A stretch of DNA of 64,000 bases from an uncultured Candidatus Actinomarina sp. Lineage in GTDB: Bacteria; Actinomycetota; Acidimicrobiia; Actinomarinales; Actinomarinaceae. The DNA lies in contig CACHBU010000001.1 in NCBI GenBank assembly GCA_902578135.1, forward strand, positions 33,932-97,931, read 5' to 3'. The notes under the pieces are model-generated. The model was given only the letters and a program-made list of their open reading frames with translations, had not been told where the DNA came from and searched no databases. Position 1 is the first letter of the stretch. Every line of letters begins with the position of its first letter. The position numbers were made by a program, and so were the translations under genes. This document shows positions 50,505-54,646 of the stretch, piece after piece.

Positions 50505-51338
50505 CTAAATATTTAATCTGTATTTTTCAGAAAATTTAATCAACTTAGTTTGATTTATGTCTTTTACTTTGTAGTCTTTAATATCTTTTGGAACATTTAC
50601 AGATTTTTTTAGTGTTGTTAATTCTTTAAATAGTTTTAAAAGTTCAAAATTGTTAGATATAGTTTCTGCATGCCTTTCGCCGCCTCTAACTGTCTTTTTC
50701 CAATTGTCTACATCATTTAAAATTAAGTCAATATTTTCATATTTTTGAAGAAGCAAAGTCGCAGTCTTTTGACCTATTCCCTTCATTCCTGGAATTCCAT
50801 CAGAACTATCTCCTGTAAGAGCAAGAAAATCCGGTATCTGATTTGGCAAGATACCAAATTTTTCTTTTACCCCTTTATCGTTTGTAAAAGTTTTATACCT
50901 AGTCGAATACATTACAACCTCATCTCCTTTTACACATTGCATTAAATCTTTATCTAATGATCCAATTATGATTTTTATATTTTTGCCGCTAAATTGTTCG
51001 CATACCGATGCAATTCCATCATCAGCTTCATATTTCTTCATAGACAGAAGGGTTATTCCAAGTAATTTTGTTACTTCCTCTGCTAGAGGAAATTGATTAA
51101 GGATATCAGGAGCAATATCATTGCTAGATTTATAACCCTGGTAAAGCTCATTTCGAAATGACTCAACAGTAGAGTCAAAAGCTACGCACAAATATTTATA
51201 TTCTTTTTTTAAAGAGTTGAGATGAGTTATATATCCCTTTAACGCTCCAACTTCAATTCCATTCGGAGAAATTCTACTAGGGTAACCAAAATGCGATCTG
51301 AATAATTCATATGTTCCATCAACAATATAGAGCTCCAT
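50505..51338 (-). CDS. Stand-alone 5'-3' exonuclease / flap endonuclease
   Basis: IVDG, VAFD, FRNELY..YK, EADD, DKDLMQ and GDSSDGIPG..GIG.KTA (H3TH) motifs. Confidence 0.93.
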   Translation of the reverse strand: MELYIVDGTYELFRSHFGYPSRISPNGIEVGALKGYITHLNSLKKEYKYLCVAFDSTVESFRNELYQGYKSSNDIAPDILNQFPLAEEVTKLLGITLLSMKKYEADDGIASVCEQFSGKNIKIIIGSLDKDLMQCVKGDEVVMYSTRYKTFTNDKGVKEKFGILPNQIPDFLALTGDSSDGIPGMKGIGQKTATLLLQKYENIDLILNDVDNWKKTVRGGERHAETISNNFELLKLFKELTTLKKSVNVPKDIKDYKVKDINQTKLIKFSEKYRLNI

Positions 51339-51363
51339 ATTCTGATTTTACTTTATGATAACA

Positions 51364-51460
51364 AACACTGGAAAGCAAAAATCCCGATTGATCTTACGAC
51401 CCTTCGGGATTTTCTGTTCTATCTTCTTTTCTATCTTTCGATTTCTTTTCCGATAGTGTT
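51364..51460 (-). ncRNA. Candidate small structured RNA
   Basis: Upstream TTGCAT-17bp-TATATT; two GNRA-capped hairpins; terminal U tract; complementary 5' and 3' ends. No ORF with a usable start on this strand. I do not recognise the family. Confidence 0.55.
51372..51413 (-). terminator. Intrinsic terminator-like hairpin
   Basis: Minus strand AAAATCCCGAAGGGTC-GTAA-GATCAATCGGGATTTTTGCTTT. Confidence 0.75.
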
Positions 51461-51465
51461 CTATA

Positions 51466-51494
51466 AATATACGTTAGTTTTTATTCTTATGCAA
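51466..51494 (-). promoter_or_regulatory. Putative housekeeping-sigma promoter
   Basis: -35 TTGCAT (51489-51494), 17-bp spacer, -10 TATATT (51466-51471). Confidence 0.65.
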
Positions 51495-51600
51495 GAAATT
51501 TACTAATCTATTTTTCGCGAGGTTTATAGCTCTAAATTATTTATTTTTTCCAAAGATTATATGTAAAAGTTTAAGTTACTAAATTAGCTAACCTTCTTAT

Positions 51601-52776
51601 ATGTTCAGTGAGATAAAAAAAATATCAAGTCTTCTTTTGTCAGTAGCTTTTTCATCAATAGGCTTTATAGCTTCAATTACTGTCACTGTGCTTGCTGCAA
51701 GAGAAGTTTCTAGTAATCCACTTTTTGTCGGCTTTCCAAATGCAGTTGGGGTAGGAGGTGCAGTCATAGGAACTAGAATGATATATTTAATATCAAAATC
51801 TAATTCTCAACTTAATGCTTTAGCATTTACCTTTTTAATAGGTGCCTTTGGGGGAGCAATTATGTTTTACAGTCTTATACTTGACTCATTTTTGCTTCTG
51901 TTGCTTGGAGCTTTCATTTTAGGAATTGGTCAATCGGCAACACTTCAAACAAGGTACGCAGCTTCATTTGTTGCTGGTGCGAAATTTAAAGCTACTGCAT
52001 TGTCTCTAGCAGTTTGGTTTTCAGTTTTTGGTTCTGTATTTGGACCACGTATGGTTGGAAGCTATTCAAATTTTTTTGAAAATATATTTAACTCTGACCT
52101 AATCGTTGGTTATGTAATTGCGTTGGTTGGAATGCTATTCGCAGCGGCCTCTCTGTTCACATTTACTTCAAAAAAAAGTATTTTAAGGAGCCCAAGTGAT
52201 TTAGAAAGTGAATCAAGTGATCAAAGTTTTGAAAGAAAAAATGGTAACTTATTATCGCTACTTTTAGTTTTGAATCACTTCACAATGGTTGTAATAATGT
52301 CTGCTACACCATTGCATATACAAGATATAGGTGAAACCGTTCAGCTGGTTGGAATTATTATTAGTTATCACACTTTAGGGATGTTTCTATTTTCACCCAT
52401 TCTTGGAAATTATGTAGATAAATATGGATACAAGAAATTTACATATGTAGGAACTGTAATTTTATTTATAAGTTGCTTAATTACTTTAATCAACTCTGGA
52501 CCTACTGCGTTAAAAATAGGTTTATACCTATTAGGACTTGGATGGAATTTTAATTATGTTGCAATTAGTGCAGCTATTTCAAAATTTTCAACCAAGTACA
52601 GAACTCCTCTAAACATAAAAAGCGACTCTTTTGTTTTTTTAGGAAGTTTTGTAGCTCATACATCTTTAGGCTTAAGCTACTTGCTAATCGGATTTAAAGG
52701 TTTGTCTTTTGTAGGAATTGCTGTAAGTATTTTTTTATTTTACAATTTAAAAAATCTAAATAAGTTAAATATTTAA
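51601..52776 (+). CDS. MFS transporter
   Basis: About 12 TM segments; HTLGMFLFSPILGNYVDKYG (MFS motif A-like) and LYLLGLGWNF. Confidence 0.88.
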   Translation: MFSEIKKISSLLLSVAFSSIGFIASITVTVLAAREVSSNPLFVGFPNAVGVGGAVIGTRMIYLISKSNSQLNALAFTFLIGAFGGAIMFYSLILDSFLLLLLGAFILGIGQSATLQTRYAASFVAGAKFKATALSLAVWFSVFGSVFGPRMVGSYSNFFENIFNSDLIVGYVIALVGMLFAAASLFTFTSKKSILRSPSDLESESSDQSFERKNGNLLSLLLVLNHFTMVVIMSATPLHIQDIGETVQLVGIIISYHTLGMFLFSPILGNYVDKYGYKKFTYVGTVILFISCLITLINSGPTALKIGLYLLGLGWNFNYVAISAAISKFSTKYRTPLNIKSDSFVFLGSFVAHTSLGLSYLLIGFKGLSFVGIAVSIFLFYNLKNLNKLNI

Positions 52777-53381
52777 TGAATAAAAATTTTTCAAAAGCTG
52801 AGGAAAGTTTGATAGAAAGTGATCCAAAATTAGCCAAAGTTATTGAAAATAACGGTCATTTAAAATTTTCAATCAAAAAAGTAGATCCGTTTAATGAGTT
52901 AGTAAATATAGTTATTTCACAGTTCATTTCTGCAAAAGCTGCCACAAGCATTAAAGAAAAAATGTTGAAGCAACTCAATGTAGAAAGTTTTAAAATTTTA
53001 AGTTTCAAAAATCTTACTGTTAGTCAAATAAAAAGCCTCGGACTAAGTAAAAACAAGGCTAAGTCTATTAAATCGTTAGTGTTGTTCTTTAGTCAAAATC
53101 CAAATTCTAAAAATCTCCTTAGACTGTCCGTTGAAGAACGATACGACAATCTAATTAAAATTTTTGGGATCGGTAAGTGGAGTATTGAGATGTTTGAGAT
53201 GTTTTGTGTTAGAAACAAAAATATTTTTTCAAGCGGAGATGCTGCTATTAGAGTCGCGATGGAGGAACTTAAAATGGTCAAAAAAACTAGAGATTTTGAG
53301 AAATATGATAAATATGCAAAAAAATGGAGCCCTTATAAAACTATTGCGTGCTTACATCTTTGGCATTTTATTGAATCTTAA
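52776..53381 (+). CDS. DNA-3-methyladenine glycosylase, AlkA/HhH-GPD family
   Basis: ISQFIS.KAA..I, GLSKNK, HhH motif FGIGKWSIEM, catalytic Asp (GD) and W.PYKTIA..LW. Confidence 0.9.
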   Translation: MNKNFSKAEESLIESDPKLAKVIENNGHLKFSIKKVDPFNELVNIVISQFISAKAATSIKEKMLKQLNVESFKILSFKNLTVSQIKSLGLSKNKAKSIKSLVLFFSQNPNSKNLLRLSVEERYDNLIKIFGIGKWSIEMFEMFCVRNKNIFSSGDAAIRVAMEELKMVKKTRDFEKYDKYAKKWSPYKTIACLHLWHFIES

Positions 53382-54646
53382 GCTAAAACGAGCACATCCT
53401 TAACTGGATGTGGTATCGGAGTTGGCCTAATCTCAAGCGATTCATCTATTTCAAAATTGTCGATATTTTGGACAAATTTGTAGATTACATTTTTGTAAAT
53501 ATAGCTAGCAAAGAACTTACCTAAACATGTATGAGCCCCTCCAGCAAATGGAAAATAAGCTTTGTTATGATAGTTTGGATCAATGAATCTATATGGATCA
53601 AAAACATCTGGATTGTCCCAGTACCTATCATCGTGATGTAAAAGTAATGGACTTATCGTCACATAAGTGCCTGCTTTTAGTGGGTAGCTATGAATTTCGG
53701 TATCCCTTACAACATATCTGATTGAAAATGGCACAGGTGGATAATATCTCATAGCTTCTTTAAATATTGATTCCCCTACTAATCCATTCTTCAATGAGGA
53801 GATGTCAGAATGATTAACTTCATTTGCTTCTTTAATTAAGTCATTCCTGAAATCTACATTTTGAGACAAACTATAAATTGAATTTGTAAGAGTGATGGTT
53901 GTAGTGTCATGAGCTGCCAACAGTAAAAAAATCATGTGTTCAGCTATCTCAAAATTTGTTAATCCCGCATCCCCTTTATTTGTATTAACTAATTCAGCAA
54001 ATAAAGTCTTTTTGCTGTCATCTTTAATAAGTCCTGCTTTTGATTCAAAATAATCAAGCAAAAACTCACGTGCTTTGAGTCCTTTTTTCATTTTGGTAAA
54101 TGGCAGTGGCCACCTTATTGCAGAAGTTGCAGAAGCAATTGAATCCATAAAAAGTTTGTTTAACTTTTCAGATTCGTCTTGTTTTACATCAAGAAAAAAA
54201 AGGCTTAGAGAAATATCAAACATGAGCTGTTTAACAGATTGATACAAATTAAAGCTCCCAGCTTTCTTTAAGTTTTCTACCCACTGATTAATAATTGGTT
54301 GAATGATTTCTAAATATCCATGAATTGCATCGTGTCGAAAAGAATCTTGCAGTAAAGTTCTATGATATTTGTGATCATCAAAATCTCTTAGCATTAACCC
54401 GTTTTCAAAAGTTGGTCCTAGTGATACAGCCCAACCTTCCTTGGAAGAAAATAGATCGTCTTTGTCTAAAAAAATATCTTTTGTAGCCTCTGGGGTTAAA
54501 AGTGCAATAAACTTTTCATTTAACAACGAAATTTGAAATACATCTCCATATTTTTCTTGCATTTCAGAAGTAAATTTAAGTGCATTACGTTGAAAAGCTA
54601 AAGAATTACCAATGATAGGAAGGCTTGGAATTACTGGAACAGTCAT
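53378..54646 (-). CDS. Cytochrome P450 (CYP136-like)
   Basis: I-helix AAHDTT, K-helix EAMR, heme motif FAGGAHTCLG. Confidence 0.95.
   Translation of the reverse strand: MTVPVIPSLPIIGNSLAFQRNALKFTSEMQEKYGDVFQISLLNEKFIALLTPEATKDIFLDKDDLFSSKEGWAVSLGPTFENGLMLRDFDDHKYHRTLLQDSFRHDAIHGYLEIIQPIINQWVENLKKAGSFNLYQSVKQLMFDISLSLFFLDVKQDESEKLNKLFMDSIASATSAIRWPLPFTKMKKGLKAREFLLDYFESKAGLIKDDSKKTLFAELVNTNKGDAGLTNFEIAEHMIFLLLAAHDTTTITLTNSIYSLSQNVDFRNDLIKEANEVNHSDISSLKNGLVGESIFKEAMRYYPPVPFSIRYVVRDTEIHSYPLKAGTYVTISPLLLHHDDRYWDNPDVFDPYRFIDPNYHNKAYFPFAGGAHTCLGKFFASYIYKNVIYKFVQNIDNFEIDESLEIRPTPIPHPVKDVLVLA

Follow-up and report, generated by a model that had tools for sequence, protein, structure and literature searches.

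A predicted small RNA gene of Actinomarinaceae, present in several copies and sharing an upstream box with dnaA and a whiB-like gene

The window, by which we mean the whole 64,000-nucleotide stretch of Candidatus Actinomarina DNA analysed here, gave 64 crude gene calls and 63 gaps with a median length of 0. By these crude calls, the longest gap (51339-51600, 262 bp) lies between a gene for a stand-alone 5'-3' exonuclease and a divergent MFS transporter gene (Table 1), confirming that it is exceptional, as the initial annotation had stated. On the minus strand of the gap, the proposed promoter TTGCAT-17-TATATT is present and conserved across orthologues and paralogues, and the RNA predicted downstream of TATATT reads AACACUAUCGGAAAAGAAAUCGAAAGAUAGAAAAGAAGAUAGAACAGAAAAUCCCGAAGGGUCGUAAGAUCAAUCGGGAUUUUUGCUUU, with the exonuclease gene 32 nt further on. 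Both GNRA hairpins, the U tract and the long stem interrupted by a 2x2 purine internal loop were found, and the repeat AAGAUAGAA occurs twice, 12 nt apart, as claimed. The terminator of the RNA was missed by a simple terminator scan because its stem contains an internal loop. Other proposals fared less well. The stem suggested to close the RNA (AACACU/AGUGUU and GGAAA/UUUCC) extends beyond the U tract of the terminator and is not conserved in seven orthologues. The segment CUAUC had been said to pair with either GAUAG copy; pairing with the second (P1) holds throughout the family, whereas the first GAUAG is absent from other paralogue types.

Table 1. Features of the intergenic gap and its flanks, in window coordinates (R1 and R2, RNA models described in the text)
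Feature	Position	Strand	Basis or remark
5'-3' exonuclease gene (stand-alone, FEN-like)	50505-51338	minus	Pfam PF02739 and PF01367; outside the RNA
MFS transporter gene	51601-52776	plus	other flank of the gap, divergent from the exonuclease gene
Upstream box CTCGCGAAAAA	51511-51521	minus	family consensus YTCGCGAAAAA; core palindrome TCGCGA/TTCGCGAA
A/T-rich spacer TAGATTAGTAAATTTC, conserved, box to -35	51495-51510	minus	comparison of seven orthologues
-35 hexamer TTGCAT	51489-51494	minus	read from the sequence; TTGC and 17-nt spacer kept in three copies and orthologues
-10 hexamer TATATT	51466-51471	minus	read from the sequence; conserved in copies and orthologues
Predicted small RNA, about 85 nt (83-88)	51372-51459	minus	models R1/R2, 106-110 bits; ends predicted
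Predicted transcription start (A)	51459	minus	7th nucleotide past the -10; predicted 3' end inside the U tract
P1 5' arm CUAUC	51452-51456	minus	partner 51419-51423; double changes in 3 of 5 pairs
J1/2 GGAAAAGAA, purine-rich, 5' side of the 9x9 internal loop	51443-51451	minus	mean column conservation 0.86
P2 hairpin AUC-GAAA-GAU	51433-51442	minus	family consensus RUC-GCAA-GAY
J2/1 AGAAAAGAA, purine-rich, 3' side of the internal loop	51424-51432	minus	mean column conservation 0.81
P1 3' arm GAUAG (second GAUAG)	51419-51423	minus	covariation and fold
P3 hairpin, 10 bp + 4 bp, doubling as terminator stem	51378-51413	minus	loop GUAA 51394-51397
Terminator tail UGCUUU, after four U of the 3' arm	51372-51377	minus	read from the sequence
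Leaderless -10 of the exonuclease mRNA, TAAAAT	51345-51350	minus	6 nt before ATG 51338-51336; also matched by the promoter scan

Trimmed to 51372-51460, the RNA folded with a minimum free energy (MFE) of -25.3 kcal/mol (z = -4.9), and none of 200 shuffled sequences did as well. Five members of the family, both sister-genus copies included, were folded separately and gave the same P1, P2 and P3 in their MFE structures, with z between -4.9 and -8.5. In the common architecture, P1 (5-11 bp) surrounds an internal loop and the GNRA-capped P2, followed by a 5-nt linker and then by P3, which is built from a 10-bp lower stem, a 2x2 purine internal loop (AG/AA in this copy), a 4-bp upper stem and a GNRA loop. 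Covariation among homologues, proposed in the initial annotation as a check, was found in the form of compensatory changes in all three helices among 81 distinct sequences. The results showed that 98.9% of the pair cells hold standard pairs, versus 27-50% when the partners are slid by 1-3 columns. Double-sided changes occur in 11 of the 22 pairs, spread over all three helices, in an alignment that was fitted to the structure of the model and has an effective sequence number of 1.5, so that few independent events stand behind the counts, most sequences being very similar; 0 of 500 shuffles reached the observed values. In P3, 6 of the 14 pairs show double changes, in divergent members, and the outer pair of P2 is A-U in 38 sequences, G-C in 41 and U-A in one, with every cell paired. 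P1 changes from CUAUC/GAUAG to CUAAA/UUUAG, and other compensatory replacements are CCCGA/UCGGG to CCCAG/CUGGG and AUCCC/GGGAU to AACCC/GGGUU. Within the three copies of the source genome itself, P2 changes from AUC/GAU to GUC/GAC and P3b from GGUC/GAUC to GGCC/GGUC.

We compared conservation across the locus in seven orthologues at the exonuclease gene, and found that mean identity was 95% for the RNA and 87% from the promoter box to the transcription start, versus 74% for the exonuclease coding sequence (53% at its third codon positions) and 60% for the 20-35-nt spacer between the RNA and the exonuclease ATG. This supports the view that the RNA is under much stronger purifying selection than its neighbouring sequence; it is 95% identical between species in which protein identity has fallen to about 65%. 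Among the 81 distinct sequences, the P3b tip GGUC/GAUC is the most conserved part of the RNA, with a column frequency of 0.99, and both loops follow at 0.97-0.98, while the 5-nt linker reaches 0.67. The consensus of both loops is GCAA (70 of 81 sequences in P2 and 75 of 81 in P3), so the loops of the window copy, GAAA in P2 and GUAA in P3, are minority variants. The G.U pair of P3b is invariant in all 80 scorable sequences, and the internal loop of P3 is purine/purine in every sequence. J1/2 is not constant from one paralogue type to another, and in one sister-genus copy it forms base pairs.

The initial annotation described one copy, but the 0.99-Mb genome holds three paralogues: the window copy and, 188 kb from it, two copies in tandem that precede an nfo-like gene. 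All three have the box YTCGCGAAAAA, a TTGC-type -35, a 17-nt spacer and a TAnnTT -10. We searched other genomes with two models, R1 from the three genome copies and R2 from 112 sequences, scoring the best candidates per genome under strict filters, by which very remote relatives could be missed. Over the whole order, R1 matched 59 of 65 Actinomarinaceae genomes, including all 12 of high quality, with 1-7 copies each; among the matches are two divergent copies in a single sister-genus genome. Over the whole class, R2 matched 59 of 401 genomes, all of them Actinomarinaceae and representing 2 of 177 genera, and the family was found in none of the 336 other genomes of the class searched with this model. 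The 3' hairpin was found on 70 genome contigs, labelled Candidatus Actinomarina, OCS155 or Actinomarinales with three exceptions (Acidimicrobiaceae, Actinomycetota and one contig binned as Methanosarcinales, which is probably mis-binned), and on more than 120 marine metagenome contigs; viral contigs gave no match to it.

The initial annotation had noted no match to the SRP, tmRNA, RNase P, c-di-GMP, c-di-AMP, SAM, TPP or glycine riboswitch motifs, and our scans agree with it. An Rfam 15 scan of the window at gathering thresholds returned tRNA only, a scan of the gap at E <= 10 gave nothing on the minus strand, and the paralogues and sister-genus copies had no Rfam match. Weak matches on the plus strand (a rimP leader at E = 0.99 and a His leader) were rejected, as they reflect only a hairpin and a U run. 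The hairpin sequence was found in no searchable paper, and the Actinomarina literature, including the main genomic description of the order (PMC7771536), gives no account of the RNA. Every comparative test that we ran supports the proposal of a novel small RNA gene that stands alone and has a promoter and a terminator of its own. From these comparisons, positions 51372-51459 of the minus strand appear to be a genuine stand-alone gene for a structured non-coding RNA, belonging to a new family confined to Actinomarinaceae, and it is likely that the gene is real and expressed. An Rfam entry for the family would be justified.

Few free-living cells of the surface ocean are smaller or more abundant than those of Candidatus Actinomarina. 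In its 1-Mb genome, the median intergenic spacer measures 2-3 bp, paralogues are very few, there are only two sigma factors and two-component systems are absent (PMC7771536). That so economical a genome maintains a non-coding gene in two to seven copies speaks for the importance of the RNA.

The copies lie at two sites. Site A is upstream of exonuclease/tRNA-c9-tilS-ftsH, and site B lies between a gene for a small membrane protein and nfo, where variable cassettes are flanked by one to three copies. The site A copy and the first copy at site B are nearly identical in the six other genomes that were compared, promoters included, and share variants that are specific to the genome, which indicates gene conversion or recent duplication; in the source genome, that site B copy has diverged, with compensatory changes. 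The initial annotation had regarded multiple genomic copies as the sign of a MITE-like repeat. Multiple copies do exist (three here), but they are paralogous genes at two syntenic loci, with promoters of their own and with compensatory changes. We rejected a MITE or REP-like repeat because copies occur at these two loci only, the promoter is conserved and no terminal inverted repeats or target duplications were seen at the copies read; the sole pairing of ends, AACACU/AGUGUU, is not conserved. The pattern of copies fits a gene kept in duplicate for dosage instead.

The position of the module offers an argument for another reading. The module and the gene that follows it mostly share a direction, with 20-35 or about 170 nt between them, and at all 20 exonuclease loci whose flank is intact, the RNA is the immediate upstream neighbour (the gene occurs in 25 of 65 family genomes, and the other five loci end at a contig edge there). 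Under that reading, the RNA would act in cis on the exonuclease here and on nfo, P450 or lipoprotein genes elsewhere, as a leader or attenuator (for example a riboswitch or a terminator that depends on a protein). However, the exonuclease has the leaderless -10 of its own that had been noted initially: TANNNT stands exactly 6 nt before its ATG in 7 of 7 orthologues, despite the poor conservation of the spacer. Across the genome, TANNNT is found at 6 nt in 158 of 1049 genes versus about 25-60 at other, neighbouring offsets, and this peak indicates that leaderless transcription is a regular mode in this genome. The genes downstream of the other copies (P450, lipoproteins, nfo) mostly have TANNNT 6-7 nt before their ATG as well. 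In four genomes that lack the exonuclease, the same site consists of the box, the promoter and the RNA and is followed by a tRNA gene, and in four other such genomes the site is without the RNA; at the second locus, what comes after the RNA is a convergent GNAT gene or another complete promoter-plus-RNA unit. The fold offers no alternative antiterminator pairing, with the MFE structure equal to the centroid and the 5' domain independent of the terminator, and conservation is highest in the terminator instead of in an aptamer-like junction. Given the downstream -10s, the tRNA, GNAT and tandem-copy contexts and the lack of antiterminator pairing, a leader or riboswitch is unlikely, with only a very slight chance of being right. 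A functional module of the RNA and the exonuclease as a nuclease was also rejected, because no more than 25 of 65 genomes have the gene, site A carries the RNA before a tRNA gene also where the exonuclease is missing, and the sister-genus copies sit in other contexts. A different reading takes the element to act at the level of DNA, as a repeat that anchors homologous recombination at the edges of exchangeable gene cassettes or as an insulator made of a promoter and a bidirectional terminator, with the role of the RNA secondary or absent. The copies at the second locus bracket different cassettes in different genomes (nothing, P450, GNAT, lipoproteins), site A has three configurations across genomes, distant copies are homogenised within a genome with their promoters, assemblies often break at the element, and its reverse complement also gives a hairpin and then a T-rich run. 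Against this, compensatory changes maintain P1 and P2, helices without an obvious role in DNA, the promoter and box, which are strand-specific, are conserved, the loops remain GNRA on the sense strand, and there are only 1-7 copies at two syntenic loci with neither terminal repeats nor target duplications seen; a recombination role is also compatible with a function of the RNA. We consider a DNA element improbable as the main explanation. The copies of the RNA gene may also serve as recombination anchors, and it is possible that P3 is kept by selection on DNA (as an anchor or a bidirectional terminator). In any case, the copies explain the recurrent assembly breaks and mark the borders of a variable gene region.

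To return to the stand-alone gene, its promoter is preceded by a box, TTCGCGAAAAA, that we found upstream of all RNA copies and their orthologues and also upstream of dnaA and a whiB-like gene (Pfam PF02467). The form TCGCGAAAA occurs six times in the genome. Each of the three RNA genes has one occurrence, dnaA is preceded by two in tandem and the whiB-like gene by one. By our estimate, simple base composition predicts about six occurrences, so the count alone is unremarkable and the placement is what is remarkable. In four other species, 15 of 17 exact matches to YTCGCGAAAAA are located at RNA genes, dnaA or whiB, and a reversed control pattern gave 0-3 matches per genome. These results suggest that the RNA may be co-regulated with replication initiation and the WhiB regulator. 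Few regulatory handles are visible in this uncultured lineage, and the box common to dnaA and whiB offers one.

From the comparisons, a sigma-70-type promoter (TTGCAT-17-TATATT), with the YTCGCGAAAAA box ahead of it, would start the RNA, and the exonuclease forms a separate leaderless unit. In the 5' domain, P1 closes the purine-rich 9x9 internal loop with the GNRA hairpin P2 as its cap; in the 3' domain, the 14-bp hairpin P3 also acts as the intrinsic terminator. In the mechanism that we propose, the near-invariant tip of P3, GGUC-GCAA-GAUC, echoed by the tip of P2 through UCGCAAGA, would be the surface recognised by a protein or another RNA, and the more variable 5' domain would set the paralogues apart. 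The RNA would work as an abundant binding, titrating or scaffold RNA, not as a classical seed-pairing small RNA. Recognition of the tips is suggested because they are more conserved than the single strands and both contain UCGCAAGA, and because one sister-genus copy has lost the purine-rich loop, identical duplicates are maintained and no target signal was obtained; a need for high dosage is suggested by identical duplicates in a genome with very few paralogues. We consider the best explanation to be a stand-alone gene for a structured RNA of about 85 nt, whose hairpin tips would be recognised and which may be co-regulated through the shared box, and on the comparative evidence this is probably correct. 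If the RNA gene is taken as real, recognition by a partner is tentatively preferred to classical seed pairing, a preference that falls just short of probable.

Seed pairing itself is unlikely, though it deserves to be weighed. As a classical trans-acting small RNA, the molecule would pair with pyrimidine-rich mRNA through GGAAAAGAA and AGAAAAGAA, and P3 would be only a terminator and stability element. The architecture agrees with that of sibling small RNAs, with an own promoter, a 5' effector domain, a Rho-independent terminator and paralogues with distinct 5' domains, and inside a paralogue type the J segments are conserved fairly well. Yet over the whole family the J segments reach 0.81-0.86 versus 0.97-0.99 for the hairpin tips, and in one sister-genus copy they are replaced by a paired helix. 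We used RNAduplex to compare the 5' domain with 1049 start regions of one genome (a crude scan, from -50 to +40 of roughly called gene starts), and the best duplex, at -25.7 kcal/mol, lay inside the range of twelve shuffled queries (-23.0 to -27.0), giving no target signal. Furthermore, the 36 near-invariant nucleotides, the invariant G.U pair and the purine loop exceed the needs of a terminator.

Among known systems, Qrr1-5 of Vibrio, PrrF1/PrrF2 of Pseudomonas and the CiaR-dependent csRNAs of Streptococcus are sets of sibling small RNA genes with a shared upstream regulator site, some of them in tandem. They are the closest by architecture, as the Actinomarina RNAs are also several 80-100-nt paralogues, some in tandem, each with its own promoter and Rho-independent terminator, and also have a conserved box upstream of the -35 and paralogues that differ in the 5' domain. 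This genome has three copies and its relatives have 1-7, each with box, -35, -10 and terminator. Unlike these systems, with which there is no sequence or model similarity, the Actinomarina RNA has a hairpin tip and not a single-stranded seed as its most conserved part, and gave no target signal; to our knowledge, the host phylum is generally considered to be without Hfq and ProQ. CsrB, RsmY and RsmZ are small RNAs that titrate a protein by repeated hairpin motifs with GGA loops. The repetition of the tip motif UCGCAAGA in P2 and P3, and the abundance suggested by several gene copies, are similar to these RNAs, but the Actinomarina RNA has two motifs only, and they carry GNRA tetraloops. A sponge of the CsrB/Rsm type was rejected since the loops are GNRA and the single-stranded segments contain one GGA at most.

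The tips also resemble a part of the ribosome. Helix 27 (the 900 tetraloop hairpin) in the 16S rRNA of this genome reads GGGGAGUACGGUCGCAAGACUAAAACUC, and the 10-mers GGUCGCAAGA and GUCGCAAGAC are common to it and to the tips of P3 and P2; by our estimate, chance would give about 0.3 such 10-mer matches to rRNA. In both structures, a GCAA loop caps a 4-bp stem that contains a G.U pair, and a purine-rich internal loop lies beneath it, but the order of the G.U and G-C pairs is swapped. A far-reaching extension of the proposal, which we regard as highly improbable, is that a minimal circuit for growth or the cell cycle may have this RNA as its abundant RNA arm, in a host with only two sigma factors, no two-component systems and, from our searches, no SRP pathway. 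A single factor that binds the box would read the RNA genes, dnaA and the whiB-like gene, and the two UCGCAAGA hairpins, by mimicking the tip of helix 27, would serve as a decoy that titrates a ribosome-assembly or translation factor, or would dock on the 30S subunit. If true, such a circuit would couple translation capacity to replication initiation.

Finally, identity with SRP RNA was considered because RF00169 is undetectable in Actinomarinaceae. Like domain IV of SRP RNA (RF00169), the Actinomarina RNA has a GNRA-capped hairpin and purine-rich internal loops, and its 5' strand AGG(G)UC-GNAA resembles AGGUCC-GGAA. In contrast to SRP RNA, it is multi-copy and has neither the AGCA side of the symmetric loop nor an asymmetric loop. 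The identity was rejected, as the RNA has no RF00169 match at E <= 10 and no AGCA loop, and Ffh and FtsY are absent. As a separate observation, Actinomarinaceae genomes, one closed genome included, have no detectable SRP RNA, Ffh or FtsY. RF00169 at E <= 10 had no match in five family genomes, a pattern search for SRP domain IV and a scan of the dnaX neighbourhood found no SRP RNA, PF02978 and PF00448 were absent from the Actinomarinaceae genomes searched, and tblastn with the Ffh and FtsY of relatives gave a best E of 0.13. Relatives from the same class have SRP RNA in 4 of 4 genomes searched and SRP54-type GTPases in 2 of 2.

Site A, the sRNA locus lying upstream of the exonuclease or tRNA gene and c9-tilS-ftsH, takes three configurations across the genus (listed below), with the loci L396-L403 representing it in genomes that lack the exonuclease. 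Carried by 25 of the 65 genomes, the gene for the stand-alone exonuclease is accessory. Comparison of window 51520-51600 with loci L118, L124, L131 and L134 showed that metK and/or a metY-like gene is found upstream of this sRNA copy in other genomes, whereas in the window the MFS transporter gene adjoins the sRNA in that place. A tblastn search found no metK match at E <= 1e-20 anywhere in the window's assembly, which is 87% complete.

Gene orders at site A and positions of the promoter box outside the sRNA genes
Feature	Gene order or position	Strand
Site A configuration 1	sRNA-exonuclease-c9-tilS	
Site A configuration 2	sRNA-tRNA(anticodon CGU)-c9-tilS	
Site A configuration 3	metK-tRNA-c9-tilS, without sRNA	
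Box TTCGCGAAAAA beyond sRNA genes	G000 (the window's genome) C1:229171-229201 and C7:8159	minus

Site B, the second locus, between a small membrane-protein gene and nfo, is a small hypervariable region (L004 3714-3985; loci L115-L133). The cassettes between its sRNA gene copies differ by genome: some have none, and others hold a cytochrome P450, a GNAT acetyltransferase or large lipoproteins. The P450 gene of the window's genome lies elsewhere, at window 53378-54646, with no sRNA copy. Single-cell and metagenome assemblies of Actinomarina often stop inside or beside the sRNA element (L372, L376, L378, L386, L390, L392 and many further contigs), making it a recurrent break point.

The tips of the GNRA-capped hairpins P3 and P2 of the sRNA family have the 10-mers GGUCGCAAGA and GUCGCAAGAC in common with 16S rRNA helix 27 (…ACGGUCGCAAGACUAAAAC…; G000 C10:12843-12870). 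Since about 0.3 10-mer matches to rRNA are expected by chance according to our own estimate, we regard this likeness as only a lead.

Actinomarinaceae seem to lack the SRP pathway, judging from the genome sequences of G000 and the relatives G009, G062, G086 and G088. In the Actinomarinaceae genomes searched, including a closed one-contig genome, neither the Ffh M domain (PF02978) nor the SRP54-type GTPase domain of Ffh and FtsY (PF00448) was found, and SRP RNA (RF00169) gave no match in the genomes searched even at E <= 10. Among relatives of the same class, SRP RNA was present in 4/4 searched and SRP54-type GTPases in 2/2; when their Ffh and FtsY proteins were used as tblastn queries against G000, the best E was only 0.13. 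SRP loss in Actinomarinaceae is not mentioned in PMC7771536. A closed genome scores only 87% 'complete', possibly owing to this apparent loss.

Two tandem copies of the conserved box TTCGCGAAAAA, which in sRNA promoters lies upstream of the -35 hexamer, also precede dnaA by about 200 nt, and a single copy precedes a whiB-like gene by about 50 nt. Other Actinomarina species keep this placement at both genes; the observation also covers loci L353, L354, L360 and L348. The leaderless-mRNA signature is strong at window 51339-51350 and genome-wide: TANNNT ends exactly 6 nt 5' of the start codon in 158 of 1049 crude gene calls, compared with about 25-60 at other offsets.
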